Notes: generated by a model from the sequence alone, not told the origin. 64,000 nucleotides of DNA from Gaiellaceae bacterium (GCA_035999905.1 DASYGK010000027.1:11709-75708); one strand, 5' to 3'. Positions 42,278 through 64,000 are shown, numbered from the stretch's first letter. Program-made: numbers and translations.

Positions 42278-42313
42278 TCGCGGAGTGACGATCAGGGTGT
42301 CCGGAGGTGTCGA

Positions 42314-50373: not shown

Positions 50374-51353
50374 TACGCCGTGACGGGTGCCGACCCGACG
50401 ACCTGCTGCACGGCGGAGACGATCTTGTCCTCGTTCGGCATGATCCACGCCTCGAGCGGCTCGCTGTACGGGACGGTCGCGTCGAGCGCCGTGACCTGCA
50501 CGATCGGCGCCTTCAACGACGAGAACCCGTGCTCGGCGACCTCGCCGGCGATCACCGTCGAGGCCGACGCGTGCCGCGTCGCCTGGTCGACGAGGACGAG
50601 CCGCCCGGTCTTGTCGACCGATTCGAGGATGGTCTGCGTGTCGAGCGGCGCGAGCGTACGCGGGTCGATCACCTCGGCCTGGATGCCCTGCGCAGCGAGC
50701 TGCTCCGCGGCGCCGAGCGCACGGTCGACCGTCCAGCCGGTGGCGACGATCGTCACGTCGCTGCCCTCGCGCCGGATGCACGCCTCGCCGAACGGCACGA
50801 GATACTCGCCGTCGGGCACTTCGCCGTGCTCGAGCGTGAGGAGGTAGTGGTGGAGGTAGACGACCGGGTTGTCGTCGCGGATCGCCGTCGCCATCAATCC
50901 CTTCGCGTCGGCCGCCGTCGACGGCATCACGACCTTCAGGCCGGGCACGCCCATGAAGAGCGCGCCGATCGTGCCCGTGTGCTGGCCGGCCCAGCCCGCG
51001 GTGAAGCCGAACCCGGCCTTCAGCACGAGCGGCACCTTGACCTGGCCGCCGCTCATCGCGCGGAAGCGCGGCGCCTCGTTGATCACCTGGTCCATGGCGA
51101 CGAGCATGAACTCGGCCATGTAGAGCTCGACCACCGGCCGGTAGCCGGCGACCGCAGCGCCGATCGCCATGCCGATCTCGGCCGTCTCGGAGATCGGCGT
51201 GACGCGCACGCGGTCGGAGCCGAACGCGTCGACGTACGGCTCGTTCTCCGTCGTCGCCATGTTCTGCCCGAAGTAGAGAACGGTGTCGTCGCGCTCCATC
51301 TCGAGCCGGATCGCCTCGTCGATGGCGGCGATGAAAGGCAGTTCGTGTGCCAT
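50373..51353 (-). CDS. 2-oxoacid/acetoin dehydrogenase E1 component beta subunit (pair 2)
   Basis: 326-aa tail of track ORF 50373..52004, from ATG 51353. It shares the fold blocks of pair 1 (TPISETAEIGMAIGAA, VPGLKVVMPS) but is clearly divergent in sequence. Confidence 0.88.
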   Translation of the reverse strand: MAHELPFIAAIDEAIRLEMERDDTVLYFGQNMATTENEPYVDAFGSDRVRVTPISETAEIGMAIGAAVAGYRPVVELYMAEFMLVAMDQVINEAPRFRAMSGGQVKVPLVLKAGFGFTAGWAGQHTGTIGALFMGVPGLKVVMPSTAADAKGLMATAIRDDNPVVYLHHYLLTLEHGEVPDGEYLVPFGEACIRREGSDVTIVATGWTVDRALGAAEQLAAQGIQAEVIDPRTLAPLDTQTILESVDKTGRLVLVDQATRHASASTVIAGEVAEHGFSSLKAPIVQVTALDATVPYSEPLEAWIMPNEDKIVSAVQQVVGSAPVTA

Positions 51354-51370
51354 GGTCTCGATCGCCTCCT

Positions 51371-52411
51371 TTAGGCGTAGACGTACTCGAGGGACGACTC
51401 GACGTCGGGGAACGGGCTGTCGAGCCCGAAGCTCACCGCGCCCTGCATCTCGTCGCGCACGCGCGCGGCGATCGCTTCCGCCTCGTCGGCGGTGAGCGTG
51501 CCGTCGCCGACGAGCCGGCCGCGGAACGCCGGCACCGGGTCGCCGGCGAGTGCGGCTTCGTACTCCTCCGGTGCGCCGAACTTCTCGATCGCCTCGTGCT
51601 CGGGGAAGTGGAGCGGCACGCCGGGCGGCGCGATGATGTTGCCGTGCGCCGAGAGGCGGTACATCTGCGACTCGACGAGCGTCGGGCCGTCTCCGGCACG
51701 CGCACGTGTCACCGCAGCGCCGACCGTCTCGTACACCTCGACCGGGTCGCGCCCGTCGATCGTCACGCCGGGCATGCTGAATGCCTTCGCCTTGACGGAG
51801 AGGTCTTCGCCGTTGGCGCGGTTCGCGTCCTCCTGCTCGGTGCGCGTGTGGACGTTGTAGCCGTTGTTCTCCATCACGAACACGATGGGGAGCTTCCAGA
51901 GCGACGCGATGTTGAGTGATTCGGAGAACGCGCCCTGCTTCGATGCGCCGTCGCCGAAGAAGCAGAGGACGACCTGCCTCTGCTTGCGGATCTGCGCGGC
52001 CCATGCGGCGCCGGTCGCGTGGGGGATGCCCGCCGCGACGATGCCCGACGTGCCCATGAAGCCGTTCGAGACGTCGGTGAGGTGCATCGAGCCGCCGATG
52101 CCCTTGCAGAGCCCGTCCTTGCGCCCGTAGATCTCCGCCATCATCTTCTTCGGGTCGGTGCCGCGCGCGAGCGGGTAGCCGTGGCAGCGGTACGTCGCGA
52201 AGAACTGGTCGTCGGGCTCGAGCGTCGCGATCGAGCCGACGATCGACGCCTCGGCGCCGTCGGCGAGATGCGTGTGGCCGCGGATGACGCCGGGATGCTC
52301 GACGAACGTCCGCTTGACGCGCTCCTCGAACTCGCGGATCCGCAGCATCTGCTCGTACATCCAGACGAGGCGGTCGCGGTCGAGCTCCTTCACTCCCTTC
52401 GGTGCGCTCAC
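51371..52411 (-). CDS. 2-oxoacid/acetoin dehydrogenase E1 component alpha subunit (pair 2)
   Basis: 346-aa tail of the 1543-aa track ORF 51371..56002, from GTG 52411 (4-nt overlap with the upstream gene). TPP motif FFGDGASKQGAFSESLNIASLWKLPIVFVMENNGYN. Confidence 0.88.
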   Translation of the reverse strand: MSAPKGVKELDRDRLVWMYEQMLRIREFEERVKRTFVEHPGVIRGHTHLADGAEASIVGSIATLEPDDQFFATYRCHGYPLARGTDPKKMMAEIYGRKDGLCKGIGGSMHLTDVSNGFMGTSGIVAAGIPHATGAAWAAQIRKQRQVVLCFFGDGASKQGAFSESLNIASLWKLPIVFVMENNGYNVHTRTEQEDANRANGEDLSVKAKAFSMPGVTIDGRDPVEVYETVGAAVTRARAGDGPTLVESQMYRLSAHGNIIAPPGVPLHFPEHEAIEKFGAPEEYEAALAGDPVPAFRGRLVGDGTLTADEAEAIAARVRDEMQGAVSFGLDSPFPDVESSLEYVYA

Positions 52412-53286
52412 GTGGAGCTCCTCTCGTGTCCGAATTGGGCGGCGGTCGTCTCGTATGCCCGCCGGAAGATGACGTCGATCGGATTGTTGCGCAAGTCGTC
52501 CGAGAGCACCTCGACGCCCCACGGCCCGCTGTAGCCGTGGTCGACGCACGTGTCGACGTAGCCGCCGAGGTCGAACTCGCCCTCGCCGGGCAGCGCGCGG
52601 TGGTTGACGGTCTCGTCGACGAGGTCGTCCATGCTCTCGAGCCGTCCGTCGCTCAGCTCGATCCAGGAGAGATACTCGAGCGGGACGCGGCGGAGGTCCT
52701 CCGGCGGGATGCCGAGCTTCGTCATGTGCCACGTGTCGATCGCGAGGCCGCCGTTCGGCGCGGCTGCGCCCTCGACGATCGTGAGTGCGGCGTCGAGCGT
52801 CTTGACGTTCTCGTCGAACGGCATGAACTCGTACACGACCTTCGCATCGGTGTGCTGCGCGGCGTCCTCGCAGAGCTCGCCGAAGCGCTCGGTGAGCTGC
52901 GCGAGCCCGCACGGCGCGCCCGGGATGTTCCCGACCTTGATGTGATGCGCTCCGAGCACGGCGGACGCGTCGAAGAGCAGCCGCCGGATCGTGTCGGACG
53001 CGCGGCGGCGGTCGTCGTCCTCGTCGAGGAACCAGTCCATCAGGAACTCGAGCTCGAGGTGCCGGAGCCCGTTGTCGTCGAACGTGGACTTCAGGTCCTG
53101 CAGGCTCTGCGTCTCGAGCGAGTGCTGCAGGTCTGCGTGCCAGATGCCGAGCCCCGCGAAGCCGACCTTGCGAGCCTCGGTGCAGCGGTCGGCCCAGCTG
53201 AAGAGGCTCCACTCCCGCCCGACGTGCACCTCGACCGGCCCGGAGACCGTCCAGTAGAGGCCGAGCAGCTCGACGTCGTCGCTCAC
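52408..53286 (-). CDS. Xylose-isomerase-like TIM-barrel protein (sugar-phosphate isomerase/epimerase family; dehydratase-type function possible)
   Basis: 292 aa. The pattern of acidic/His metal-ligand blocks (HIKVGN, YEFMPF, IDTWH, WIELSD) is typical of the AP-endonuclease-2/xylose-isomerase TIM fold. The specific activity is not deducible. Confidence 0.7.
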   Translation of the reverse strand: MSDDVELLGLYWTVSGPVEVHVGREWSLFSWADRCTEARKVGFAGLGIWHADLQHSLETQSLQDLKSTFDDNGLRHLELEFLMDWFLDEDDDRRRASDTIRRLLFDASAVLGAHHIKVGNIPGAPCGLAQLTERFGELCEDAAQHTDAKVVYEFMPFDENVKTLDAALTIVEGAAAPNGGLAIDTWHMTKLGIPPEDLRRVPLEYLSWIELSDGRLESMDDLVDETVNHRALPGEGEFDLGGYVDTCVDHGYSGPWGVEVLSDDLRNNPIDVIFRRAYETTAAQFGHERSST

Positions 53287-53295
53287 TCCGCCCGC

Positions 53296-54663
53296 CTAGT
53301 GCGGCCGGTACGAGGCGCGGACGACCTCGGCGTAGGGGACCGGCGACACGATCGCGCGGATCTCGGTCTGCACGTGACGCTCGACGACCGGCTTGTCGGA
53401 GCCGCCGTTCTCCTCGCCCCAGATGAGCGTGACCTCGGTGCCCGGCTCTGCCTGCTCGACGTTCACGATCGCGAGCGACAGCATCGAGCTCTCGTTCGAG
53501 CTGTAGCCGGAGAACGTCGACACGCCGACCATCTTCCCGTCCTTGAGGATCTTGTCGTTCGGCCAGGTCGAGTAGTTCGAGAGCGGCAGGTCGATGTACT
53601 TCGCGCGGTTCTCCTTCTGGAACATCGTCCCCATCGCGCGGGCGACGTCCTCGCCGTTCCAGGCGAGCGTGACCTTCTTCCGCTTCGGCTCGCCCATCTT
53701 CTCGAGCGCCTCGCGCCCGGTGAAGTCGTGGTCGTAGCGCACGAACGACCCGTAGCCGAGGTCCCACGGCGTGAGGTAGTAGTCGCGGATGTCGTTCGAG
53801 TAGAAGCTGCCGCCGAGCGAGCCCGTGCCCTCGTAGCCCTGCGCGGGCAGCCATTCGCGGTACGACTTCAGGTCGTCGCCCGTGAACACCGCCGGCAGCG
53901 GGCATGGGATCCAGCCGGACTCGAGCGTGTTCGTCGCGTAGACGCGCGAGCCGACCTGCGCGAGCCCGAACTCCTTGCCCGCCTCGACGATCGCAGCGCG
54001 AACGTCGTCGCCCTCCGCCCACGGCCCGAAGAGCTCGAGGCCGGGAACGCCCGACATGCCGTGATGCAGCGCGCGCACCTTGTGGCCGCCGATCGTGAGC
54101 TCGCCCATGTTGAAGAACTTGATCTCGGGGAGCGCGCCGCCGTTGACCTTCTTCAGGACCTCGTTCGCGGTCGGGCCCTGCACCTGGAAGCGGTAGAGCC
54201 GGCGGCCGGTCGGGTTGACGGCGGAGCGCTCGTCGCGCTCGAACGTCACGTCGTAGTCGCCCGTCTCGCCGTGGAACTGCACCCAGTTGTGCGCCGACGG
54301 CCGGCCGACGAGGCTGAGCGTGTTCTCGTCGAGGAAGAAGAGGATGGCGTCGCCGATCACGTAGCCGTCGTAGTTGACGGCGACGAACTGCTTCGCCTTG
54401 TCGACGGCGAACGTCGCGAAGCTGTTGACGCCGGTGGCCTCGAGCAGCTTCAGCGCGTCGGGGCCCTTGATCGTGAGGTCGGTCATGTGGTGCGACTGGT
54501 CGAAGAGACAGCAGGTCTCCCGCCAGGCGTGCTGCTCGTCGCGCCAGTTCGTGAACTCGCCCGGGACCTTGGGGTAGACGTACGGGCCGATCTGCGAGTT
54601 CCGGACGAGCTCGACCGGATTCCCTACGGCGTCCAGCAGGTCTTGCAGGCTCTGAGAACTCAT
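53296..54663 (-). CDS. GcvT/aminomethyltransferase-family, tetrahydrofolate-dependent aryl O-demethylase (LigM/DesA-like)
   Basis: 455 aa. Blocks match my recollection of Sphingobium LigM/DesA: LVRNSQIGPYVYP, NWRDEQHAWRE, LFDQSHHM, KFFNM, LHHGMSGVPGLELFGP, EAGKEFGL.QVGSR.Y..NTLESGWIP.PLPA, YREWLPA, KKVTLAWNGEDV, LIWGEENGG and VSPVPY. Confidence 0.82.
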   Translation of the reverse strand: MSSQSLQDLLDAVGNPVELVRNSQIGPYVYPKVPGEFTNWRDEQHAWRETCCLFDQSHHMTDLTIKGPDALKLLEATGVNSFATFAVDKAKQFVAVNYDGYVIGDAILFFLDENTLSLVGRPSAHNWVQFHGETGDYDVTFERDERSAVNPTGRRLYRFQVQGPTANEVLKKVNGGALPEIKFFNMGELTIGGHKVRALHHGMSGVPGLELFGPWAEGDDVRAAIVEAGKEFGLAQVGSRVYATNTLESGWIPCPLPAVFTGDDLKSYREWLPAQGYEGTGSLGGSFYSNDIRDYYLTPWDLGYGSFVRYDHDFTGREALEKMGEPKRKKVTLAWNGEDVARAMGTMFQKENRAKYIDLPLSNYSTWPNDKILKDGKMVGVSTFSGYSSNESSMLSLAIVNVEQAEPGTEVTLIWGEENGGSDKPVVERHVQTEIRAIVSPVPYAEVVRASYRPH

Positions 54664-54818: not shown

Positions 54819-54856
54819 TTCCAATTGATGGAACGCTGCGCTAGGATGCGCGCGTG
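54819..54856 (+). promoter_or_regulatory. Candidate leaderless promoter of the iclR gene, with a GTTCCA/TGGAAC palindrome
   Basis: TTCCAA (54819-54824), 17-nt spacer, TAGGAT (54842-54847), 6 nt, then GTG 54854. The inverted repeat GTTCCAattgaTGGAAC (54818-54834) overlaps the -35 and the spacer. Confidence 0.4.
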
Positions 54857-55663
54857 GAGAGCCGAGGCTCTGACGGGGGCACGGGGACGTCGCAGTCCTT
54901 GGAACGCGGCCTCGCGATCCTCTCCTCGTTCCATTCCGACCGGCCGCTGATCGGTGTCAGCGAGCTCTCGCGCGACCTCGAGCTGAGCCGGAGCACCGCG
55001 CACCGCTACGTCGCGACGCTCGCGAAGCTCGGCTATCTCCAGCAGGACGCCGAGTCGAAGCGCTACCGGCTCGGCCCGAAGGTGCTCGACCTCGGCTTCT
55101 CGGCGCTCAACTCGATGGAGCTCGTCGAGATCTCGGCGCCGCACCTCCGGCGGCTGAGCGACGAGACCGGCCGCACCGTCAACCTCGCGATCCTCGACGG
55201 CATCGACGTCGTCTACATCGAGCGCTACCGGACGGCGCAGCAGGGCCAGCGCGAGATCGACCTCAACCTCCACGTCGGCGCGCGGCTCCCGGCGTACTGC
55301 ACGGCGATGGGGAAGGCGATCCTCGCGTTCGTCCCCGAGGAGCAGCTTGCCGGCGTCCTTCCTCAGATCGACTTCGTGCCGCGCGGGCCGAACACGCTCA
55401 CGAGCCCCAGTGCGTTCCGCGCCGAGCTCGCGAAGATCCGCAGCGCGGGGCTCGCCGTGAACGACGAGGAGCTCGCATACGGGCTGCGCTCGATCGCGGC
55501 GCCGATCTACTCGCACTCGGGCGAGGTGATCGCGGCGCTCAACCTCGCGGTGCACCGCACCATGGCGTCGATGGACGAGATGGTCGCGCGCTTCGGCCCT
55601 GCGGTGATCAAGTCGGCGCAGGAGATCTCGCAGAGCATGGGGCACAGGCCCGCCACCGTCTGA
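54854..55663 (+). CDS. IclR-family transcriptional regulator (PcaR/PobR-like)
   Basis: 269 aa. N-terminal wHTH (SLERGLAILSSF....LIGVSELSRDLELSRSTAHRYVATLAKLGYL) and a C-terminal IclR effector domain (GLAVNDEELAYGLRSIAAPI). Confidence 0.88.
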   Translation: MESRGSDGGTGTSQSLERGLAILSSFHSDRPLIGVSELSRDLELSRSTAHRYVATLAKLGYLQQDAESKRYRLGPKVLDLGFSALNSMELVEISAPHLRRLSDETGRTVNLAILDGIDVVYIERYRTAQQGQREIDLNLHVGARLPAYCTAMGKAILAFVPEEQLAGVLPQIDFVPRGPNTLTSPSAFRAELAKIRSAGLAVNDEELAYGLRSIAAPIYSHSGEVIAALNLAVHRTMASMDEMVARFGPAVIKSAQEISQSMGHRPATV

Positions 55664-57639
55664 TGCCCGCGCCGCAGCGTGACGACCCGGGCGTCCTGTG
55701 GACGCCGCCGCCCGACGTCCGCGACACGACCGAGATCGGGCGGTATCTCGCGTGGCTCGAGCGCGAGCGCGGGCTCGCGTTCGCCGGCTACGACGAGCTG
55801 CAACGCTGGTCGGTCGACGATCTCGAAGGCTTCTGGTCGTCGATCTGGGAGTTCTTCGAGGTGAAGGCGCACGCGCCGTATGACGCGGTGCTCGCGTCGG
55901 ACGCGATGCCGGGCGCCGTGTGGTTCCCCGGGGCGCGGCTGAACCTCGCGGAGCACCTGCTCGGCGCGGACGAGGACACGGACGCGGTCGCGGTGATCGC
56001 ACGCGGTCAGACGCGCGACCCGATCGAGCTGACGTTCGGCGAGCTCCGCGAGCAGGTCGCGCGGGCGCGCGCCGGGCTGCTGCGTCTCGGCGTCCAGCCG
56101 GGCGACCGGGTCGTCGCGTTCATGCCGAACATCCCCGAGACGCTCGTCGCGTTCGCCGCGACGGCGAGCATCGGCGCCGTGTGGGCGAGCTGCGCGCCGG
56201 AGCTCGGGCCGCGCAGCGTCATCGACCGGCTCGTGCAGCTCGAGCCGACGGTGCTCCTCACGGTCGCCGGCTACGGCTTCCGCGACCGCTCCGTCGATCG
56301 CCGCGACGAGGTGGCGACGATCCGTGCGGCGCTGCCCACGCTCCGTCACGTCGTGCACGTGCCGTACGGCGAGCACGTCATCGCCGACGCGCTGCCGTGG
56401 AGCGAGCTCCTTGCGGAGAGCGGTCCGCTCGAGTTCGCGGGCGTCCCGTTCGACCATCCGCTGTTCGTGCTCTTCTCGTCGGGCACGACTGGACGCCCGA
56501 AGGCGATCGTGCACGGGCACGGCGGCATCCTGCTCGAGTACCTCAAGGCGCACTCGTTCAGCTGGGATCTGAAGCCGGGCGGCCGGCTGCTGTGGTTCTC
56601 GACGACGTCGTGGATGATGTGGAACGCGCTCGTTCACGCGCTGCTCGTGCGCTCGTCGATCGTGATGCTCGACGGCGACCCCGCGTGGCCCGACTACGAC
56701 TGGCAGTGGCAGGTCGCCGAGGAGACGCGTCCGACGTTCATGGGCGTCGCGCCGGTGTTCCTGATGGCGTGCCGCAAGGCGGGGCTCCATCCCGGCCGCG
56801 ATCACGACCTCTCGTCGATCCGCGTCTTCGGCGCGGCCGGCTCGCCGCTCCCGCTCGAGGGCTACCGCTACGTCTACGAGGAGCTCGGGCCCGACGTGAT
56901 GCTGCTCAACGGCAGCGGCGGCACCGATGTCTGCAGCGGGATCGTCGGCGGCTCGCCGATGCTGCCGGTCTACGAGGGCGAGATCTCGGGGCGCCTGCTC
57001 GGCTGTGCGGCCGACGCGGTCGACGCGGACATGAGGCCGGTCGTGGGCGAGCTCGGCGAGCTCGTGATCACGAAGCCGATGCCGTCGATGCCCGTCGCGC
57101 TCTGGGGCGACGCGGACGGGTCGCTCTACCGGAGCTCGTACTTCGAGATGTTCCCCGGCGTGTGGCGGCAGGGCGACTGGATCATCTTCGCGGAGCGCGG
57201 CTCGTGCCGCGTGACGGGGCGCTCCGACGCGACGCTCAACCGCGGCGGCGTGCGCCTCGGCACGAGCGAGTTCTACGGCGTCGTCGAGGAGCTCCCGGAG
57301 ATCGTCGACAGCCTCGTCGTCCATCTCGAGGACGCGGAAGGCGGCGCGGGCGAGCTCGTGCTGTTCGTCGTGCTCGCCGACGGGGTCTCACTCGACGACG
57401 ACCTGCGCGGGCGGATCGGCAGGGCGCTGCGCGCGGAGCTCTCGCCGCGGCACGTCCCCGACACGATCCGTGCGGTGCCCGCGGTGCCGCGCACGCTCAC
57501 GGGCAAGAAGCTCGAGGCGCCCGTGAAGCGCCTGCTCCGCGGCGATCCGATCGAGGCCGTCGCAAGCCGCGACTCGCTGCTCGACCCGACGGCGCTCGAC
57601 CTGTTCGCCTCGATCGCGCTCGACCGGCCGGCGACCTAG
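55663..57639 (+). CDS. Acetoacetyl-CoA synthetase-like acyl-CoA ligase (AMP-forming, beta-keto-acid type)
   Basis: 658 aa. The AACS-type N-terminus is present (LWTPP......T.IGRYLAWLE.ERGL.F..Y.EL.RWSV.DLE.FW.S.W.FF), with AMP-binding motif FSSGTTGRPK and a C-terminal TLTGKKLE. Its ATG overlaps the iclR stop (TGATG). Confidence 0.85.
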   Translation: MPAPQRDDPGVLWTPPPDVRDTTEIGRYLAWLERERGLAFAGYDELQRWSVDDLEGFWSSIWEFFEVKAHAPYDAVLASDAMPGAVWFPGARLNLAEHLLGADEDTDAVAVIARGQTRDPIELTFGELREQVARARAGLLRLGVQPGDRVVAFMPNIPETLVAFAATASIGAVWASCAPELGPRSVIDRLVQLEPTVLLTVAGYGFRDRSVDRRDEVATIRAALPTLRHVVHVPYGEHVIADALPWSELLAESGPLEFAGVPFDHPLFVLFSSGTTGRPKAIVHGHGGILLEYLKAHSFSWDLKPGGRLLWFSTTSWMMWNALVHALLVRSSIVMLDGDPAWPDYDWQWQVAEETRPTFMGVAPVFLMACRKAGLHPGRDHDLSSIRVFGAAGSPLPLEGYRYVYEELGPDVMLLNGSGGTDVCSGIVGGSPMLPVYEGEISGRLLGCAADAVDADMRPVVGELGELVITKPMPSMPVALWGDADGSLYRSSYFEMFPGVWRQGDWIIFAERGSCRVTGRSDATLNRGGVRLGTSEFYGVVEELPEIVDSLVVHLEDAEGGAGELVLFVVLADGVSLDDDLRGRIGRALRAELSPRHVPDTIRAVPAVPRTLTGKKLEAPVKRLLRGDPIEAVASRDSLLDPTALDLFASIALDRPAT

Positions 57640-58358
57640 AGCTGCTCGAGCCACGCCGCCGCGGCCGACGCGATGCGCGGCTCGACGCCGAGCTCTTCGA
57701 GGTACGCGGCCGCCGCCTGCATCTCGTCGACGCGCCGGGCCGCATGCGCGTGGCTGCCCGACACGAGCCGCTCGAGCAGCGGCTCCCCGAGCACCGCGGC
57801 GATCTCGTCGCGGATGCGGTCCTCGGCGCCCGCCGCGCGCGCCGCCTCGAGGCTCTCGATCGCGGCGGCCGCCATCCCCTTCATGAAGACGCTCCGCAGC
57901 AGCTTCAGGCCCGCCGCGTCGCCGGGCTCCGGCCCGACGACCTCGACCGGCATCCCGAGCGGGACGAGGAGCTCGGCGAAGCGCGCCGCTCCCGCGCCCG
58001 ACGCGAGCGCCGGCGTCGCGAGCCCCGTGCTCGGGACGATGCCGAGCAGCGCGACGTCGGCGAACGGCACCGGCAGCGCCGCCGCGAGCTCGCGCTTGAG
58101 CGCCGGTGCGCTCGTGTTGAGATCGGCGTACACCGCGCCCGCGTCGAGCGCGCCCCCGACCTCGCGTGCGACGTCGGCCGCGACCGCCGCGGCGTTCACG
58201 CTCAGCACGGCCTCGGCGCCCGCGACCGCGTCCGCCGCGCTCTCGACTCCCTCGACCCGGTGTGCGGGATCCCAGCCGCGCACGACGCAGCCTGCCGCGG
58301 CGAGGTCGGCGGCGAGTCGTCCGCCCGCCTCCCCGAGCCCGAGGACGGCGACCCGCAT
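57636..58358 (-). CDS. NAD(P)-binding oxidoreductase (6-phosphogluconate-dehydrogenase-like N-domain plus DUF1932-like C-domain)
   Basis: 240-aa tail of track ORF 57636..59345, from ATG 58358. Rossmann N-terminus MRVAVLGLGEAGGRLA, then LKLLRSVFMKGM in the helical C-domain. Confidence 0.6.
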   Translation of the reverse strand: MRVAVLGLGEAGGRLAADLAAAGCVVRGWDPAHRVEGVESAADAVAGAEAVLSVNAAAVAADVAREVGGALDAGAVYADLNTSAPALKRELAAALPVPFADVALLGIVPSTGLATPALASGAGAARFAELLVPLGMPVEVVGPEPGDAAGLKLLRSVFMKGMAAAAIESLEAARAAGAEDRIRDEIAAVLGEPLLERLVSGSHAHAARRVDEMQAAAAYLEELGVEPRIASAAAAWLEQL

Positions 58359-58975
58359 CAGCCCTCGAAGAGCTCGCGCAGCCCGTTCACGTCGTACGAC
58401 AGCTCGCCCGCCGCGTAGCGCTCGCGCAGCGCACGCTCGCGCTCCGCACGCTCGCGCGCGAGCGGCAGCACCTCGTCGATCCGCTCGGCCGGCAGCGCCA
58501 TCGCGCCGTCGCAGTCGAGCACGACGAGGTCGCCCGGCTTGATCTCCGCGCCGCCGACGACGACCGGCACGTCGAGCTCGCCCTGCTCGCCCTTCGTCGC
58601 ACCCGACGCGCGCACGAAGCGCGCCCAGATCGGCAGGCCGATCGCGGCGAGCTCGTCCAGGTCGCGCACCGCGCCGTCGACGAGGATCCCCGCGACGCCG
58701 CGCACCTGCGCCTGCGTCGCCAGGAGCTCCCCGACGAGCGCAACGGCGACGGGCTCGAAGCTCGTGAGCACGAGCACGTCGCCCGGCTCCGCGTGCGCGA
58801 TCGCCGCGTGCACCATCGAGTTGTCGCCGGAGGCGTTGAGAGCGATCCGCGCGGGCCCTGCGACGCGCGAGCCGGGCACGACCTGCTTCAGCGGGAGGTC
58901 GACGACGCCGATCCGGCCGGCCGCCTCGTGCACGGTCGCAACGCCGAGCTCGGCCAGCTCCGCGTAGTCGGTCAC
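58358..58975 (-). CDS. RraA-family class II aldolase (4-carboxy-4-hydroxy-2-oxoadipate / HMG aldolase, oxaloacetate decarboxylase type; LigK/GalC-like)
   Basis: 205 aa. RraA fold blocks are present (GDNSMVH.AI....GDVLV, GELLAT.A...GVAGILVDGAVRD, P.WAR). Confidence 0.78.
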   Translation of the reverse strand: MTDYAELAELGVATVHEAAGRIGVVDLPLKQVVPGSRVAGPARIALNASGDNSMVHAAIAHAEPGDVLVLTSFEPVAVALVGELLATQAQVRGVAGILVDGAVRDLDELAAIGLPIWARFVRASGATKGEQGELDVPVVVGGAEIKPGDLVVLDCDGAMALPAERIDEVLPLARERAERERALRERYAAGELSYDVNGLRELFEG

Positions 58976-59685
58976 AGCGCGTCGACGACGACGGGGATCT
59001 CGCGCTCGAACGCCTCCGCGTACGCGACGTCCTTACGTCCGGAGATGCGCCGCGCGTGGTTCGCGCGATGCTCGCCGCGCTCGGAGTAGTACTGCTTGAG
59101 GTAGTTCTGCGCGCCCATCGCGTCCATCGCCGCCACCTTCTTCTTCCACACCGGCGTGACGTCGACGAACGTCGTCGGCACGAAGCCGCAGAGCTCTGGC
59201 TGGTGCGGCTCGAAGAGCAGCAGCTCCGGCGGCGCGACCGTCTTGAACGCGCTCGCGACGCCGGCGCCGCTCGCGAGCTGCCGCGCCTGCACCGTCGCGT
59301 CGTGAGCGACGCCGTGATCGGGATTGAATGGGTCGCGCGCCGCATGCGTGAGCATCACGTTCGGGGCGAGCTCGCAGATGAGGTCGCGCAGCCGGTCGAC
59401 CGCCGCCGCGTCGAGCACGAGCGGATAGTCCCCGAGATCGAAGCTGCTGAACGTCGCTCCGAGCGCGGCCGCCGCCGTCGTCGCCTCGCCGCGGCGGATC
59501 TCCTTCACGCGCTCCTCGGTCTGGCCAGGCTCCTTCCAGAGCTCGCCCGACTCGCCGCGCTCGCCGTAGGACAGCGCGACGACGTGCGCGGTCCCGCCGT
59601 CCTCGACGAAGCGCGCGATCGCGCCGCCCGCCCGCCAGACGAAGTCGGCGGCGTGCGCGCTCACCACGAGCATCGACCTAGGCAC
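58972..59685 (-). CDS. PIG-L/LmbE-family zinc hydrolase-fold protein (GalB-type 4-oxalomesaconate hydratase candidate)
   Basis: 237 aa. PIG-L motifs are present (LVVSAHAADF..RAGG, NPDHGVAH). It overlaps the aldolase gene by 4 nt. Confidence 0.75.
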   Translation of the reverse strand: MPRSMLVVSAHAADFVWRAGGAIARFVEDGGTAHVVALSYGERGESGELWKEPGQTEERVKEIRRGEATTAAAALGATFSSFDLGDYPLVLDAAAVDRLRDLICELAPNVMLTHAARDPFNPDHGVAHDATVQARQLASGAGVASAFKTVAPPELLLFEPHQPELCGFVPTTFVDVTPVWKKKVAAMDAMGAQNYLKQYYSERGEHRANHARRISGRKDVAYAEAFEREIPVVVDAL

Positions 59686-60568
59686 CGGCGAGCAGCCTCG
59701 TGTTCGTCACGGCCATCACCCGCACATCATCCTCGCTGAAGCCCGCCTCGAGCAGCCGATCCGCCATCAGCGCGAGCCCGTCCTCGACCGGCGGATTCTG
59801 CACCTGGCCGAGATCGGTCGAGAGGACGTTACGCTCCGGGCCGGTCGCGCGGATCGACTCGAACGTCTGCTCCCACGAGACCTTCCCGCTGTGGATCGGC
59901 GCGAAGCAGCGCTCGAGCAGCGCGCCCTTCTCCGCGAGCGCGCGCTGCTCGTCGACCGGAACGCCCTGGGTCGGATAGTCCGGATGCGTGACGACGACGT
60001 GCCGCACGCCCGCCGCGAGCGCACCGTCGACGACGTCGTGGATCTCCGCCCGGCCGAGGTGCCCGGTCGCGAGCACGAGCTCGTGCTGGGCCACGACGGC
60101 GTACACCCGCGCGAGCGCGCCGTCCTCGAGGGCGACCGGCGGCATGCCGACCCCCGCCTCCGCGAGCGAGTCCTGCACCTTCCGCCACGCCGGCGGCTTC
60201 GCGGGCTTCGGTCCGTCCTCGCTCGCCTCGTTCTCGGAGTCGACGGTGGGCAGCCAGACGATCCGGCCGCCTTCGCGCGCCAGGATCTCGACCGCCTGCG
60301 CGTTCAGGCCGCCGACGCCGTTGTTGAGCGTGATCGCGCCGAGGGCGTCGACGCCCGGGACCGCGCCGCGGACGACCGCCGCGCGCTCCGCCGTCGGGAC
60401 GTAGTGCGACTTGAGCACGAAGCCCGCGAGCCCGACCGCCTCGAACCGGCGTGCGAGCCCGAGGTCGTCGATCCGGCGCTTCGCGAGATCGGGCTCGACG
60501 TGCACGTGCAGGTCGTACCCGCCGCGGACGAGCTCGCGTGCGCGCGACGAGCACTCAGTGTCCGGCAA
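59678..60568 (-). CDS. Metal-dependent hydrolase-like TIM-barrel protein (amidohydrolase/PHP-like, uncharacterised family)
   Basis: 296 aa. It has an N-terminal DLHVHVEPD motif and later ATGHL and VVTHPDYP His blocks. The only in-frame start is TTG 60568, which overlaps the dioxygenase 3' end by 14 nt. Confidence 0.55.
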   Translation of the reverse strand: MPDTECSSRARELVRGGYDLHVHVEPDLAKRRIDDLGLARRFEAVGLAGFVLKSHYVPTAERAAVVRGAVPGVDALGAITLNNGVGGLNAQAVEILAREGGRIVWLPTVDSENEASEDGPKPAKPPAWRKVQDSLAEAGVGMPPVALEDGALARVYAVVAQHELVLATGHLGRAEIHDVVDGALAAGVRHVVVTHPDYPTQGVPVDEQRALAEKGALLERCFAPIHSGKVSWEQTFESIRATGPERNVLSTDLGQVQNPPVEDGLALMADRLLEAGFSEDDVRVMAVTNTRLLAGA

Positions 60569-61529
60569 GAAGCTCCTCTTCCTGCGCGACGGGCGGCGAG
60601 CCCTTGATGTGGAACGACGCGACCGTCTGCATGCCCCACGCCTGGCCCTTCGCGCGCTCGGCCTGCGACCAGACGACCGGCTCGTGCGCGGGGTCGAAGA
60701 TGAGATAGCCGCCGGCGCACACCTCGATGCGGTTGCCGCCCGGCTCCCACGTGTAGAGGAAGAATGTCTGTTGGATCGCGTGCTTGTGCGGGCCCGACTC
60801 CATCACGATCCCGTGCTCGAGGAAGATGTCCGCCCCGCGCAGCACGTCCTCACGCTGGTCGACGAAGAACGCGATGTGGTGCAGCCGGCCGCGCGTCCCC
60901 GTCATGTCGCGCGTGTACGTCACGTCGTACGACTTCTGGTTCGACGCGAGCCACACGCCCGCCTCGCGGCCGTCGTCGAGCACGATCTGCTCCGTGAGGC
61001 GCAGTCCGAGGTTCGCCTCGAGGAACGCGCGGTTCTCACCGGGGTCGACGGCGAGGAAGTTGATGTGGTCGAGATGGCGCACCCCGACGCCGCGGCCGGG
61101 ATACCGCTGCGGCTGGTTCTTGAGCGACGGCTTCAGCTCCGGTGGCGCGACATAGCGCTCCGACTCGTAGAAGAGCTCGAAGCGGTGGCCGTCGGGGTCG
61201 AGGAAGCTGTAGGCGCGCCCGTGCCCGAGGTCGCCGTCGTGCCACTCGCCGCCCGCTCCGTTCGCCTCGAGCGCGGCGACGCGGCGGTCGAGCGCCTCGG
61301 GGCTGTGCGTGCGATACGCGAGGTGGCCGACGCCCGACGAGGGCGCGTGCGTGAGCTTCAGCGACGCGCGCTCGTAGTCGCCGAAGCAGCGGAGGTACAC
61401 CGAGTCGCCGCGCTCGGCCTCGACCTCCATGCCGAGGATCCCGCGGAAGTAGTGGAGGCTCTCGTCCGGCTTCGGCGTCAGCAGCTCGACGTGCGACAGG
61501 TGCGCGAGGTCGCGAACGGTCTCGGTCAT
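60555..61529 (-). CDS. Type I (vicinal oxygen chelate) extradiol ring-cleavage dioxygenase, catechol 2,3-dioxygenase family
   Basis: 324-aa tail of track ORF 60555..61829, from ATG 61529. It is a two-domain VOC protein with metal ligands in HLDHINF, RLHHIAFFV and YTWEPGGNRIE. Confidence 0.88.
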   Translation of the reverse strand: MTETVRDLAHLSHVELLTPKPDESLHYFRGILGMEVEAERGDSVYLRCFGDYERASLKLTHAPSSGVGHLAYRTHSPEALDRRVAALEANGAGGEWHDGDLGHGRAYSFLDPDGHRFELFYESERYVAPPELKPSLKNQPQRYPGRGVGVRHLDHINFLAVDPGENRAFLEANLGLRLTEQIVLDDGREAGVWLASNQKSYDVTYTRDMTGTRGRLHHIAFFVDQREDVLRGADIFLEHGIVMESGPHKHAIQQTFFLYTWEPGGNRIEVCAGGYLIFDPAHEPVVWSQAERAKGQAWGMQTVASFHIKGSPPVAQEEELLAGH

Positions 61530-62971
61530 GCGAGGTAGCCGTGCGGATCGGCATGCAGGTGGTCGGCGAGCCGGCTCGCGAGCGCCATGATCGTCAGCGA
61601 CGGGTTGACCGAGAGCGTCCGCGGGACGACCGAGCCGTCGCCGACGTAGAGCCGTTTCACGTCCCACGACTGCGCGTCCGCGTCGACGACCGAGCGCTCG
61701 GGGTCGCTGCCCATCCGGCAGGTCCCCTGGATGTGCGTCGTGATCAGCCCGGTCCAGAGCACTTCCGTCGCGCCGGCGGCGCGCAGCGCGTCGCGGCTGA
61801 AGTCGAGGGCGCCGTCGATCCGCTTCCACTCTCGGTCGTTGAACGCCGCCTCGAACGACTCGGCGCCGCTCTCGTCGACGTGGACGCTGCCGTTGTTCTC
61901 GTCGTTGACCATCGCGAGCACGCCGACCCAGCGCCGGAAGCCGCGCGCGGCCTCGACGAGCTTCGGCCCCCAGAGCGGGCCGTTCTCGTCCTCGAGCGTC
62001 GTCGCGAAGCCGATCGGATCCTGGATCGTCGCCGCCTCGACGACGAAGCCGCCGTCCTCGTCGTGCTGGTGGTCCATCGCGTGCGTCGTGATCGGGTAGA
62101 CCATGTGCGTGTCCTGCGGCTCGTCGAAGAGCCCATAGACGAGGCGCGCAGGGTGGAAGCCGAGGTTGCGGCCGACGAGCCGGCTCGACGGGCTGTCGGG
62201 CAGCCCGGAGCGCATCAGGAGCTGCGGCGTGTTGAGCGTGCCGGCAGCGACGACGACCGCGCCCGCGTCGACACGGCGCAGCGCGCCGTCTGGCCCGACG
62301 TACTCGACTCCCGTGGCCTCACCGTTCTCGACCACGACGCGTTCGACGCGGCAGTCGGCGCGCAGCTCGAGGCCGCCGGTGACCCAGGCGTCCTGGATGT
62401 AGGTGTTCTGCGTCGACTTGCCGGAGTTCGTCGGGCAGCCCTGGAGGCACGAGCCGCAACTCATGCACGTCGTGTCGGTGTACGAGCGGACGGACTCGAG
62501 CGTGGAGCCGAGCGCCCGGAATCCCGGTTCGACGGTGCGCACGCTCTTCGGCCAGTCGTTGCGCTCGCGCACCCCGAGCCGCTGCTCGACGCGGTCGTAG
62601 TGCGGCGCGAGGTCGCTCTCGCCGAACGGCGAACCGCCGGTGGTAGCCAGCCCGCTCGCCGCGTGCCATTTCTCGAAGTCCTTCGCGTGCGCGCGCAGAG
62701 CGACCTTCGTGTTGATCGTCGTCGAGCCGCCGACGCAGCGGCCGGCGACGAGCCCGACGGCGCCGCGCGCGCCGCCGTCGATCAGCGCGAAGCGGATCGG
62801 CCACCAGAGATCGTGCGCCGCCTTCGCCTCCCAGCGCGTGAAGTCGGCGGCTGTCTTGTGCGGGCCGACCTCGAGGAGCAGGACCTTCCGGCCGCGCTCC
62901 GCGAGCTCGCCGGCGACGACGCCGCCGCCCGCGCCCGATCCGACCACGACGACGTCGAAGCGCTCGCTCAT
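61526..62971 (-). CDS. GMC-family FAD oxidoreductase
   Basis: 481-aa tail of track ORF 61526..63889, from ATG 62971. FAD fingerprint DVVVVGSGAGGGVVAGELA, GGSTTIN, and a C-terminal GTCRMG...VVD....W.V..LYV.DGSV.P block. Confidence 0.85.
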   Translation of the reverse strand: MSERFDVVVVGSGAGGGVVAGELAERGRKVLLLEVGPHKTAADFTRWEAKAAHDLWWPIRFALIDGGARGAVGLVAGRCVGGSTTINTKVALRAHAKDFEKWHAASGLATTGGSPFGESDLAPHYDRVEQRLGVRERNDWPKSVRTVEPGFRALGSTLESVRSYTDTTCMSCGSCLQGCPTNSGKSTQNTYIQDAWVTGGLELRADCRVERVVVENGEATGVEYVGPDGALRRVDAGAVVVAAGTLNTPQLLMRSGLPDSPSSRLVGRNLGFHPARLVYGLFDEPQDTHMVYPITTHAMDHQHDEDGGFVVEAATIQDPIGFATTLEDENGPLWGPKLVEAARGFRRWVGVLAMVNDENNGSVHVDESGAESFEAAFNDREWKRIDGALDFSRDALRAAGATEVLWTGLITTHIQGTCRMGSDPERSVVDADAQSWDVKRLYVGDGSVVPRTLSVNPSLTIMALASRLADHLHADPHGYLA

Positions 62972-63330
62972 GCGATGCCGAGGTACGACCAGTCCTTCGC
63001 GAGCCGCGTCGCGAGGGGCGTGTTGAAGTCGATCTCGGCCCAGGCGCCCTCGACGTCGACTCCGGGTGCGACGAAATCGCTGTAGAACGCCTCGATCGCG
63101 AGCGCGCGGACGTAGAGGAAGTCCGGTGTCCCGACGTGGTCTCCGACGTCGCCGGAGGCGACCGTCGCGAAGGCGGCGAGCGTGCCTGCGCGCATGCCGT
63201 CGTCCATCCGCGCGAGCAGCGCGTCGAGGTACACCGCGGGCCTGACGCGGGCCGACCCCGGGACGATCGCGTCGCAGACGCGCTCGACCGATTCCGCCGT
63301 CGCCGCGTCCAGCACCTTGAGGTCGACCAT
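62968..63330 (-). CDS. Small subunit partner of the GMC oxidoreductase (gluconate 2-dehydrogenase subunit-3-like)
   Basis: 120-aa tail of track ORF 62968..63699, from ATG 63330. It overlaps the GMC gene by 4 nt. No twin-arginine signal is visible. The family assignment is tentative and rests on size, context and the A.E.FYSD block. Confidence 0.5.
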   Translation of the reverse strand: MVDLKVLDAATAESVERVCDAIVPGSARVRPAVYLDALLARMDDGMRAGTLAAFATVASGDVGDHVGTPDFLYVRALAIEAFYSDFVAPGVDVEGAWAEIDFNTPLATRLAKDWSYLGIA

Positions 63331-63370
63331 CGCCCGATGATAAATCAGGCAGACTGATATCGGAAATGCG

Positions 63371-64000
63371 ATGCAGCCCATGACCCCGTTCCGCGAACAG
63401 CTCACGCGCCCCGGCGCGTTCGTGGTCGCGGCCGAGGTCGTCACGAGCCGCGGGCTGATCACGGCCGACAGCAGCCGCCGCGTGCTGGAGATCGCGCGGG
63501 AGCTCGCGGCCGACGAGCGCATCGACGTGCTCTCGATCACCGACAACCCCGGCGGCCACGCGATGCTCGCGCCCGACACGCTCGGAACCGACCTCGTCTC
63601 GCGCGGGCAGGAAGTCGTGATCCACCTCTCGTGCAAGGACTGGAACCGCAACGCGCTCGAGAGCCGCGGCTGGAAGCTCGGGTCGGAGGGCTTCGACAAC
63701 GTGCTCGCGCTGTCGGGCGACTACCCGGTCACGGGGCACAAGGGGCTCGCGGCGCCCGTGTTCGACATCGACTCCGTCGGGCTGCTCAGCCTCTTCTCGG
63801 AGATGAACGACGGTTTGCGCGACACGCGCAAACCGGGCACGCGCCTCGACAGGACGAATTTCTTCCTCGGCGGCGTCGTCACGAACCACAAGCGGCGCGA
63901 GCGCGAGGTGATGCCGCAGTACTTCAAGCTGAAGAAGAAGGTCGAGGCCGGCGCGCGGTTCGTGATCAACCAGATCGGCTGGGACGTGCGCAAGGACGAC
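63371..64000 (+). CDS. metF: Methylenetetrahydrofolate reductase (MetF family), 3'-truncated by the window edge
   Basis: Open frame from ATG 63371 (or ATG 63380) to the window end. It is absent from the track because no stop is reached. Blocks FVVAAEVVTSRG, DVLSITDNPGG, VIHLSCKDWNRN, NVLALSGDYP and FFLGGVV are MTHFR-like. Confidence 0.78.
   Translation, partial: MQPMTPFREQLTRPGAFVVAAEVVTSRGLITADSSRRVLEIARELAADERIDVLSITDNPGGHAMLAPDTLGTDLVSRGQEVVIHLSCKDWNRNALESRGWKLGSEGFDNVLALSGDYPVTGHKGLAAPVFDIDSVGLLSLFSEMNDGLRDTRKPGTRLDRTNFFLGGVVTNHKRREREVMPQYFKLKKKVEAGARFVINQIGWDVRKDD

Follow-up and report, generated by a model that had tools for sequence, protein, structure and literature searches.

A conserved gene module with DUF6282 and DUF1932 proteins as a candidate extradiol route for carboxylated catechols in Gaiellaceae

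Introduction

How might a bacterium feed the last two steps of an extradiol pathway when the enzyme families that perform the preceding steps elsewhere are missing from the operon? This question is raised by seven minus-strand genes in a 64,000-nucleotide (nt) stretch of DNA from a metagenome-assembled genome of Gaiellaceae bacterium (GCA_035999905.1 DASYGK010000027.1:11709-75708), hereafter the window, which is high in G+C (~70%). In order of transcription, the genes g1 to g7 encode a small protein, a GMC flavoprotein, a VOC-type dioxygenase, a DUF6282 protein, a PIG-L protein, an RraA-like protein and a DUF1932 oxidoreductase. An initial annotation of the window proposed that they represent a non-orthologous version of the lower pathway for meta-cleavage of protocatechuate or gallate. 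On balance, we lean towards reading the operon as a complete extradiol route of the "4,5-type" that converts a 4-carboxycatechol to pyruvate and oxaloacetate. The last two steps can be assigned by clear orthology at the sequence level, and the first three are predicted from gene context and protein fold.

Results

Proposed assignment of the five core enzymes

We used Pfam, NCBIfam and PDB sequence searches to call protein families. The g5 protein matched PDB entry 5CGZ, the 4-oxalomesaconate (OMA) hydratase GalB of Pseudomonas putida, with E 1.5e-61 and 45.5% identity over 233 residues, and its next PDB matches were the MshB deacetylases at E 5e-5. The AHxxD, GERGES and DH motifs align between g5 and GalB. 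For g6, the NCBIfam model of CHA (4-carboxy-4-hydroxy-2-oxoadipate) aldolase / oxaloacetate decarboxylase (NF006731) gave 184.8 bits against a cut-off of 179, and the P. putida F1 enzyme 3NOJ was matched at E 4e-43 and 42.2% identity, with R104/D105 of g6 aligned to the Arg-Asp pair R123/D124 of 3NOJ. Judged from these alignments, orthology is solid both for g5 as a GalB-type (PIG-L fold) 4-oxalomesaconate / 4-carboxy-2-hydroxymuconate hydratase and for g6 as an RraA-like class II CHA aldolase.

To our knowledge, OMA has only three sources: cleavage of gallate, hydrolysis of 2-pyrone-4,6-dicarboxylate (PDC), and the ester formed by cleavage of 3-O-methylgallate. PDC arises by oxidation of the cyclic hemiacetal of 4-carboxy-2-hydroxymuconate semialdehyde (CHMS), as known from the Lig/Des pathway of Sphingobium SYK-6, the Pmd pathway of Comamonas and the Gal pathway of P. 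putida. In the route that we propose, the substrate would be protocatechuate and/or gallate together with 3-O-methylgallate supplied by a neighboring O-demethylase. The VOC enzyme g3 would open the ring, converting protocatechuate to CHMS or, alternatively, gallate or 3-O-methylgallate directly to OMA or PDC. The NAD(P)-dependent DUF1932 enzyme g7 would then oxidize the CHMS hemiacetal to PDC, and the DUF6282 protein g4 would hydrolyze the PDC lactone to 4-oxalomesaconate / 4-carboxy-2-hydroxymuconate. Finally, g5 would add water to yield CHA, which g6 would split into pyruvate and oxaloacetate.

The simplest mapping onto the canonical pathway equates the VOC enzyme with LigAB, DUF1932 with LigC and DUF6282 with LigI, because the core holds one dioxygenase, one NAD(P) oxidoreductase, one hydrolase of ring-opening type, one hydratase and one aldolase. 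The five proposed steps match the five core genes with none to spare. This mapping is supported by the gene slots in Micromonospora, by the distribution of the tautomerase, and by the pairing of a redox enzyme with a hydrolase among distant homologues, all of which are described below.

The g4 protein had a single Pfam match, to PF19799 (DUF6282; 3e-56), and a search of the PDB with the g4 sequence alone returned nothing meaningful. We modeled g4 with AlphaFold2 (AF2) from an alignment of 61 diverse DUF6282 members, obtaining a (beta/alpha)8 barrel with a mean predicted local distance difference test score (pLDDT) of 96.7. Residues H21, H23, K53, H55, H170, H195, E219 and D252 are conserved in the family, and H21-x-H23, H170, H195 and D252 lie at the predicted ends of strands 1, 5, 6 and 8; in the model, this layout is the pattern of the amidohydrolase superfamily. 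Foldseek assigned a probability of 1.0 to many amidohydrolases, all of them distant relatives (TM score 0.56-0.64), including the E. coli phosphotriesterase-homology protein (PHP, 1BF6), dihydroorotase, isoaspartyl dipeptidase and lactonases resembling phosphotriesterase. The COG3618 amidohydrolase 4DLF was matched at a TM score of 0.56, and LigI belongs to the COG3618 group. A profile of the DUF6282 family searched against all PDB sequences recovered PHP alone (E 0.013).

As modeled, DUF6282 appears to be a separate, uncharacterized branch of a superfamily rich in hydrolases that open lactones and cyclic amides. The initial annotation had put an uncharacterized metal hydrolase in the place of LigI, which agrees with the amidohydrolase-superfamily barrel of the model. 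We propose on the basis of the model that g4 is a PDC lactone hydrolase analogous to LigI. Apparent fusions of DUF6282 to GntR-FCD and HpcH aldolase domains in a representative library were set aside as evidence of the Rosetta-stone kind, being probable gene-call run-throughs of overlapping neighbors. Homologues of DUF6282 are abundant in soil metagenomes, with 7,805 scored matches and 3,042 representative clusters at 50% identity, and g4 itself is at most 91% identical to proteins from metagenome-assembled genomes (MAGs) of Gaiellaceae and Gaiellales.

The g7 protein combines NAD_binding_2 and DUF1932 domains (Pfam), and its PDB relatives 3QSG, 4EZB and 1I36 carry generic or "uncharacterized/hypothetical" molecule names. 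None of the seven operon products contains a GFO_IDH_MocA domain. We propose, from its family and its gene context, that g7 is a CHMS-hemiacetal dehydrogenase analogous to LigC. The place of LigC had initially been offered to the GMC flavoprotein, to the DUF1932 oxidoreductase or to both. DUF1932 kept its claim as a constant partner of the module and is the better stand-in, because the GMC pair occurs only in Gaiellales and Solirubrobacterales and is missing from some Gaiellales loci.

The g3 protein has two Glyoxalase domains (Pfam) and is a two-domain type I (VOC) extradiol dioxygenase. It is the only dioxygenase of the operon, no LigB-type enzyme is encoded in the operon or the window, and no second extradiol dioxygenase gene was found in the window; this agrees with the initial inference that a VOC enzyme stands where LigAB or GalA would be. 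The closest solved structure is 9WGJ (E 4e-121, ~55-60% identity), which is the dioxygenase of the same module in Geobacillus zalihae (100% identity), and the next-best PDB relatives, 7Q2A among them, were deposited as catechol 2,3-dioxygenases. In an alignment to homoprotocatechuate 2,3-dioxygenase, the metal triad of g3 (H155/H218/E269) is kept. PraA, which is a protocatechuate 2,3-dioxygenase, was considered as a relative of g3 and rejected, its gene of 881 bp being too short for a 324-residue two-domain VOC protein. We propose that g3 is the ring-cleavage enzyme for protocatechuate and/or gallate and 3-O-methylgallate.

Conservation of the module across genomes

Scanning a genome collection with g4 yielded 80 loci, onto which the window proteins were mapped by tblastn. 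Conservation of gene order, to which the initial annotation had looked for support, was found in Gaiellales, where at least 27 of 36 loci have the order g1-g7 with matching overlaps (median junction gaps of -4, -4, -8, -8 and -4 nt). A five-gene core comprising the VOC, DUF6282, GalB, aldolase and DUF1932 genes was clustered in three phyla, with products 33-70% identical to the window proteins. These core loci belong to Meiothermus (L036), Thermus thalpophilus (L078), the megaplasmid pTHEOS01 of Thermus oshimai JL-2 (L085), Geobacillus zalihae (L081/L082), a Solirubrobacterales MAG (L038) and actinomycete MAGs (L054, L059 and L062). The idea of a non-orthologous lower pathway thus stands in part: it is backed by the orthology of GalB and the CHA aldolase and by comparative-genomic context, but the conserved unit comprises five genes rather than seven.

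A VOC gene forms part of the module or adjoins it directly in the window and in 9 other lineages, and DUF1932 is present in every examined locus with a VOC gene. We clustered all open reading frames (ORFs) of the 45 non-Gaiellales DUF6282 loci into BLAST families. In these families, whose members were not verified individually, DUF1932 was the commonest neighbor of DUF6282 (28 loci), together with a GntR/FCD regulator (26), the RraA aldolase (24-27), GalB (19) and an NMT1-type ABC transporter (18-20). No family resembling LigAB-type dioxygenases recurred among the neighbor gene families of these loci.

Five Micromonospora loci bring together genes for an RraA aldolase, PrpF, DUF1932, an Amidohydro_2 protein (LigJ-like), DUF6282 and an ABC transporter, and the PrpF protein passes the OMA-tautomerase equivalog NF033377 (507 bits; cut-off 440). 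There, DUF6282 and DUF1932 would take the places of LigC and LigI in a set whose tautomerase, hydratase and aldolase genes are otherwise canonical, which supports the proposed mapping. Hydrolysis of PDC gives the enol used by GalB, and LigJ needs the product of LigU. No tautomerase accompanies the GalB-type module of the window, and one is present beside the LigJ-type hydratase of Micromonospora. Across the 45 loci, the pairing was read from the unverified BLAST families and is not clean, as PrpF accompanies GalB in L077, and L060 carries Amidohydro_2 but lacks PrpF within 10 kb.

Enzymes that produce protocatechuate or diols of the gallate type accompany the module, namely PobA in Thermus and Meiothermus and a LigM/DesA-type O-demethylase with a MTHFR gene in the window, which supports the proposed substrates. 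In Meiothermus and T. oshimai, the immediate neighbors of the module include the gene for 4-hydroxybenzoate 3-monooxygenase (NF006091, 478 bits; cut-off 351), and a Rieske dioxygenase and an ABC importer are also adjacent. The pca genes of L038 (Solirubrobacterales) lead straight into a DUF1932-VOC-DUF6282-GalB module. A Gfo/Idh/MocA gene near the module of L059 was considered as a LigC and rejected, since it is inositol-dehydrogenase-like and adjoins an EboE-family TIM-barrel protein.

Esterases also appear in this setting. Genes of the tannase/feruloyl-esterase family lie near DUF6282 in L049, L052 and L056 (Virgisporangium, Streptomyces), and the Geobacillus module ends with an Abhydrolase_3 esterase (weakly tannase_B-like; L081 2983-3813) and an MFS transporter. 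These neighbors hint at ester-bound phenolic acids such as tannins as a natural source.

Distant DUF6282 homologues were found in non-aromatic-looking contexts on plasmids of Natrinema, Agrobacterium and Paracoccus (L087, L088 and L089; 29-38% identity). Those on the two alpha-proteobacterial plasmids (29-31% identity) are accompanied by a TRAP transporter, by an HpcH/HpaI aldolase and by a protein that is dihydroorotate-dehydrogenase-like or unannotated. Here again DUF6282 is flanked by an oxidoreductase on one side and a pyruvate aldolase on the other, with a TRAP transporter in front, and the arrangement suggests a general pairing of a redox enzyme with a hydrolase that opens heterocycles. 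The Agrobacterium locus additionally has a GMC oxidoreductase and a succinate-semialdehyde dehydrogenase.

The GMC flavoprotein and its presumed small partner

The g2 protein contains GMC_oxred_N (1.3e-38) and GMC_oxred_C (2.3e-20) domains by Pfam, with no NCBIfam equivalog above its cut-off. Its best PDB relatives, matched only in the C-terminal part, are the alpha subunit of FAD-glucose dehydrogenase and the large subunit of fructose dehydrogenase. Residues 169-180 (CMSCGSCLQGCP) form a ferredoxin-type CxxCxxCxxxCP motif, which is kept in 31 of 35 homologues; Fer4 Pfam matches to this motif are weak and below threshold. A cytoplasmic location is predicted for g2, whose sequence opens directly at the FAD-binding GxGxxG and has no signal peptide.

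The g1 protein had been called a small subunit. It is a coupled, conserved gene, being 71-93% conserved across Gaiellales and 100% identical to a 120-residue protein called independently in a "Gaiellaceae bacterium" MAG (P0391), but it matched no Pfam family (E up to 1) and no NCBIfam family. Its AF2 model is all-helical (pLDDT 81) and found no fold match in the PDB with Foldseek. A suggested homology of g1 to the gamma subunit of FAD-glucose dehydrogenase or to gluconate-2-dehydrogenase subunit 3 was unsupported, as no relative emerged from Pfam, NCBIfam or AF2 with Foldseek. No twin-arginine motif was seen in g1, and the operon has no cytochrome gene. In L038, the GMC homologue (39% identical to g2) carries an N-terminal extension of ~145 residues that aligns weakly with g1 (26-28%), and an aldehyde dehydrogenase gene follows it. 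We presume that g1 is a partner of g2 because of the 4-nt coupling of their genes, the conservation of g1, and the similar segment fused to the N-terminus of the Solirubrobacterales GMC protein.

The GMC gene and g1 were seen only in loci of Gaiellales and Solirubrobacterales. Since the pair is absent from all modules outside Thermoleophilia and from the Gaiellales loci L016 and L017, we regard it as an accessory apparently confined to this class. It may oxidize an aromatic alcohol or aldehyde that feeds the pathway, or it may provide an alternative oxidation of the hemiacetal that is linked to electron transport.

Operon layout and neighboring genes

Genes were placed with a call based on G+C content at third codon positions (GC3) and an ORF listing (Table 1). 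The seven genes were confirmed, and the overlaps of 4, 4, 14, 8, 4 and 1 nt at successive junctions from g1 to g7 are exactly those given initially. The first family calls of GMC, VOC, PIG-L, RraA-like and DUF1932 also held in Pfam and NCBIfam profile searches, with the HxH TIM protein now identified as DUF6282. GC3 is 0.93-0.97 in each of the seven frames, and g4 has a TTG start with the ribosome-binding site GGAAGAGGAG just before it. A consensus scan of the operon found no promoter-like site and no same-strand terminator-like match; a single terminator-like match on the plus strand was within chance expectation. Given the overlaps, the conserved order and the lack of internal promoter-like or same-strand terminator-like matches, the layout is no chance arrangement and g1-g7 probably form one transcription unit.

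Table 1. Coordinates of the operon genes and surrounding features in the window.
Feature	Position	Strand	Product length (aa)	Family evidence
g1, small protein	63330..62968	minus	120	
g2, GMC flavoprotein	62971..61526	minus	481	
g3, VOC dioxygenase	61529..60555	minus	324	
g4, HxH TIM protein	60568..59678	minus	296	DUF6282
g5, PIG-L protein	59685..58972	minus	237	
g6, RraA-like protein	58975..58358	minus	205	
g7, Rossmann oxidoreductase	58358..57636	minus	240	DUF1932
Putative divergent control region (~40 nt), between g1 and the MTHFR gene	63331..63370			
MTHFR-like gene, divergent, runs off the window	63371..64000	plus		PF02219 (MTHFR), NF006396
Acetoacetate-CoA ligase	55663-57639	plus		NF002937, 850 bits (cut-off 639)
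IclR-family (PcaR/PcaU/PobR-like) regulator	54854..55663	plus		IclR_C, HTH_IclR; TIGR02431, 242 bits (below cut-off 285)
LigM/DesA-type tetrahydrofolate-dependent aryl O-demethylase	53296..54663	minus		NF047885, 639 bits (cut-off 580)
Eight-gene overlap-coupled run led by the LigM-like gene	45805-54663	minus		
ABC importer	41030-45808	plus		
pobA-pca cluster	34325-40425	minus		

Upstream of the operon, non-coding DNA is limited to the putative control region, which is relatively AT-rich. It includes the palindromes TGATAAATCA and GATATC, which are possible operator sites. No sigma-70 consensus match was found in this region, and leaderless transcripts from it are possible. At the other end of the operon, the acetoacetate-CoA ligase gene converges on g7 with a 4-nt stop-stop overlap (57636-57639); its position between the module and the IclR and LigM genes is kept in ~25 Gaiellales loci.

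The LigM/DesA-type O-demethylase is a likely supplier of the diol substrate, judging from its family. Its 700 bits on the DesA model NF047633 fall short of the cut-off of 800. In 27 of the 36 Gaiellales loci, and also in L054, L059 and L062, a LigM-like gene is found no more than 10 kb from the module, and its association with MTHFR is repeated in L059. In Sphingobium SYK-6, MetF recycles the methyl-tetrahydrofolate made by O-demethylases of the LigM/DesA type. The gene for the IclR-family protein, a candidate regulator of the region, is kept near the module in many Gaiellales loci.

In the eight-gene run, the LigM-like gene is followed directly by a xylose-isomerase-like TIM-barrel protein (weakly QuiC-like), and this pair is kept next to the module in most Gaiellales loci. 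Two E1alpha/E1beta heterodimer pairs dependent on thiamine diphosphate (ThDP) come next, with no E2 or E3, and the run ends with a benzoylformate-decarboxylase-like ThDP enzyme (NF005485, 459.6 bits; cut-off 493) and a Zn alcohol dehydrogenase. From these family calls, the run could be a pathway that cleaves C-C bonds in the side chains of methoxylated aromatics.

A complete pobA-pcaC-pcaD-pcaB-pcaG-pcaH-CoA-transferase cluster, which encodes the ortho pathway for protocatechuate, lies 17 kb from the meta-type operon, with the ABC importer between them. By gene content, the operon is evidently not the organism's only route for protocatechuate. In agreement with the absence of a PrpF-like gene noted initially, tblastn with the Micromonospora OMA tautomerase found no PrpF in the operon or anywhere else in the window. 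A LigJ-like probe gave a weak tblastn match at 1622-2011, far from the operon.

Discussion

Several observations weigh against a complete 4,5-type route, the foremost of which concern the dioxygenase. The g3 protein falls in the (alkyl)catechol 2,3-dioxygenase subfamily, scoring 316.2 bits on the catechol 2,3-dioxygenase equivalog TIGR03211, just below its cut-off of 320.2. When enzymes of this subfamily act on 4-substituted catechols, they cut the ring on the side expected to yield the 5-carboxy rather than the 4-carboxy isomer. That the nearest characterized relatives of g3 cleave 4-alkylcatechols proximally is the main weakness of our proposal. In the sequence alignment, Tyr201 of g3 occupies the position of the catalytic second-sphere residue His200 of homoprotocatechuate dioxygenase, and the carboxylate-binding Arg residues of that enzyme are not conserved. 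The same Tyr is found in 9WGJ and in the Thermus, Meiothermus, Nocardioides and Alicyclobacillus homologues, and the module-linked VOC enzymes of L038 and L059 retain His. All module-linked VOC enzymes have a C-terminal ER(A/K)(K/R)GQAWG...FH segment that is missing from the alkylcatechol enzyme AphC (which we take to be 7Q2A) and from homoprotocatechuate dioxygenase. Because of Tyr201, this shared segment and the missing Arg residues, the substrate and cleavage position of g3 cannot be read from its sequence.

Other difficulties arise from gene context and from precedent. The pobA and pcaHG genes in the window would make a second protocatechuate route redundant. A VOC gene occurs within 10 kb in only 8 of the 45 non-Gaiellales DUF6282 loci, with a transporter instead in most, and a CHMS dehydrogenase without a dioxygenase nearby is odd. 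With a transporter but no dioxygenase within 10 kb in most of these loci, the core may act first on a ring-opened compound taken up from outside, such as PDC. In T. oshimai, an aldehyde dehydrogenase gene is divergent from the VOC gene (L085 5755-7200; 352 bits on the HpaE model, below cut-off), and this enzyme of ring-fission type could oxidize the open-chain semialdehyde directly, bypassing PDC. Finally, we know of no DUF1932 or 6-phosphogluconate-dehydrogenase-like enzyme that oxidizes a hemiacetal, and LigC is of a different family.

Four other explanations were weighed against the proposed route. Within that route, because pcaHG is in the window and the operon is linked to a LigM/DesA demethylase, the substrates may be gallate or 3-O-methylgallate as much as protocatechuate, and the operon may mainly serve the former. 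LigAB of SYK-6 handles protocatechuate, gallate and 3-O-methylgallate alike. In the strict form of this idea, the operon would be a pathway for syringyl (S) lignin rather than for protocatechuate: the VOC enzyme would turn gallate into OMA, or cleave 3-O-methylgallate to the methyl ester CHMOD (4-carboxy-2-hydroxy-6-methoxy-6-oxohexa-2,4-dienoate), which would cyclize to PDC. DUF6282 would be a PDC hydrolase or a CHMOD methyl-esterase, GalB and the aldolase would finish the pathway, and DUF1932 would have a side role other than CHMS oxidation. The pobA and pcaHGBDC genes that already serve protocatechuate in the window favor this form, as do the demethylase and MTHFR genes that flank the operon, the esterases, of the tannase family or weakly tannase-like, that neighbor DUF6282 in several loci, and the origin of 5CGZ, the characterized GalB-type hydratase, in the P. 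putida gallate pathway. However, it leaves the most constant partner of DUF6282 jobless, the monooxygenase linked to the module in Thermus and Meiothermus makes protocatechuate and not gallate, and direct conversion of gallate to the keto form of OMA would be expected to need a GalD/LigU tautomerase, which is lacking in the window. We consider this form unlikely. A role of the core in using imported compounds seems similarly improbable to us. Under it, the ancestral unit would consist of a transporter, DUF1932, DUF6282, the hydratase and the aldolase, breaking down a ring-opened compound taken up from outside, for example PDC or a reduced pyrone or lactone; DUF6282 would open the heterocycle, DUF1932 would set the oxidation state to reach OMA, and the VOC gene would be a later addition in some lineages, including that of the Gaiellaceae window. 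This would account for the ranking of neighbors in the 45 loci, in which DUF1932, GntR, the RraA aldolase, GalB and the NMT1-type transporter outnumber the VOC gene and no LigAB-like family recurs, and it is in keeping with the TRAP transporter, dihydroorotate-dehydrogenase-like flavoprotein and HpcH aldolase beside distant homologues. Yet those genomes may encode a dioxygenase at another site, NMT1-type ABC systems are also importers of aromatic acids (phthalate), the VOC gene is within or adjoining the module in all of the lineages counted above, and we know of no natural reduced-PDC substrate.

The remaining two alternatives reassign individual enzymes. The GMC protein and its small partner might be the real CHMS-hemiacetal dehydrogenase, passing electrons through an Fe-S cluster to the respiratory chain and leaving DUF1932 with another role. 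FAD-glucose dehydrogenase, whose catalytic subunit is with that of fructose dehydrogenase the closest solved relative of the C-terminal half of g2, oxidizes a cyclic hemiacetal to a lactone, which is the chemistry of LigC; in addition, translational coupling ties g1 and g2 to the dioxygenase gene, and a GMC gene follows the module in L038 too. We nevertheless think this quite improbable, as the pair is missing from Thermus, Meiothermus, Geobacillus, most actinomycete modules, L016 and L017, whereas DUF1932 is in all loci with a VOC gene, and the aldehyde dehydrogenase after the L038 GMC gene suggests a peripheral route from alcohol to acid. Hardly credible, in our view, is that the operon has nothing to do with carboxylated catechols, with g3 an ordinary (alkyl)catechol 2,3-dioxygenase, the PIG-L protein a deacetylase and the RraA-like protein in some other role. 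The near-cut-off TIGR03211 score, the catechol 2,3-dioxygenases among the PDB relatives of g3, and the name "PIG-L deacetylase family protein" that PGAP gives the Thermus homologue of g5 would fit. Against this, the match of g5 to GalB is ~56 orders of magnitude better than to any deacetylase, g6 is above the curated CHA-aldolase threshold, Pfam and NCBIfam detect no catechol-meta hydrolase, 4-oxalocrotonate or HpaI-type genes in the operon, and the linkage with PobA, LigM and OMA tautomerase across phyla points to carboxylated substrates.

Our preferred reading remains the five-step 4,5-type route. It is possible, though we would stop short of calling it probable, that DUF6282 and DUF1932 are an unrecognized pair of a ring-opening hydrolase and an NAD(P) oxidoreductase that act on a six-membered oxygen heterocycle and form a widespread, cross-phylum entry to OMA and CHA, fed either by a new class of type I extradiol dioxygenase with Tyr for the catalytic His (from protocatechuate or gallate) or by uptake of pyrones from soil. 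The initial annotation knew of no described pathway with this combination of enzymes, and we found none in the literature searched. No description of the module, DUF6282 or 9WGJ was found in a full-text corpus with few subscription-journal papers; papers on DUF1932 were irrelevant, and literature on GalB, RraA, extradiol enzymes, protocatechuate and gallate covers the canonical Lig, Pmd, Gal and Pra pathways only.

Surveys that use ligAB, ligC, ligI and galA as marker genes for the turnover of lignin and tannin would miss a module of VOC, DUF1932 and DUF6282 genes. Gaiellales are common in soil. If DUF6282 and DUF1932 do form such an entry, abundant uncultured soil Gaiellales, and also Thermus and Geobacillus, would mineralize aromatics derived from lignin or tannin by a route that is invisible to annotation. 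The proposed route further implies that g3 would be the first enzyme of type I extradiol kind to carry out protocatechuate-4,5 or gallate cleavage, and it gives testable functions to two domains, DUF6282 and DUF1932. Cultured, tractable hosts include T. oshimai JL-2 (on its megaplasmid), G. zalihae, Micromonospora and Promicromonospora, and the crystal structure 9WGJ exists. New thermostable enzymes for CHMS oxidation and PDC hydrolysis would be of practical value, since PDC is in demand as a monomer for bioplastics.

Comparison with known systems

At the level of single enzymes, g3 shares the two-domain VOC fold and His-His-Glu triad of TIGR03211-type dioxygenases (AphC, RHA1 3LM4 and 9WGJ), but differs from the catechol 2,3-dioxygenase subfamily in a gene context that points to a carboxylated substrate. 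The g1/g2 pair resembles the FAD-glucose and fructose dehydrogenase complexes in having a GMC catalytic subunit with a Cys-rich motif of Fe-S type and, immediately upstream, a translationally coupled gene for a small protein. Those complexes have a Tat signal and a cytochrome c subunit, whereas the operon has neither; g1 has no sequence or fold similarity to their small "hitch-hiker" subunits, and the Cys spacing of g2 differs from theirs in being of the ferredoxin type.

The closest chemical parallel to the proposed route is protocatechuate 4,5-cleavage, represented by LigAB-C-I-U-J-K of Sphingobium SYK-6, pmd of Comamonas and pcm/pca of Arthrobacter/Pseudarthrobacter. The proposed sequence of ring fission, hemiacetal oxidation to PDC, lactone hydrolysis, hydration and aldol cleavage would be the same, as would the end products. 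Both also have an RraA-type aldolase, and the link to tetrahydrofolate-dependent O-demethylation (LigM/DesA, MetF) is as in SYK-6. The earlier enzymes differ. Where the known pathway has a LigB-superfamily (type II) dioxygenase, the sole dioxygenase of the operon is a type I VOC enzyme; in place of the Gfo/Idh/MocA enzyme LigC/PmdC, the candidates are DUF1932 and/or GMC proteins; and in place of LigI (Amidohydro_2/COG3618), there is g4, which shares the superfamily fold without a detectable sequence relationship. The known pathway uses the PrpF-family LigU with the hydratase LigJ, whereas the operon has no PrpF and a hydratase of GalB type.

The gallate pathway of P. putida KT2440 (GalA, GalD, GalB and GalC) shares with the operon the GalB-type PIG-L Zn hydratase (45.5% identity) and the CHA aldolase. 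P. putida KT2440 also carries pcaHG, so that, as in the window, pcaHG stands alongside a meta route, and the operon's meta route could be kept for substrates of the gallate type. However, the gallate pathway relies on the LigB-type GalA and the PrpF-type GalD, families found in neither the operon nor the window, and the operon has three extras that the gallate pathway does not need: DUF6282, DUF1932 and the GMC pair.

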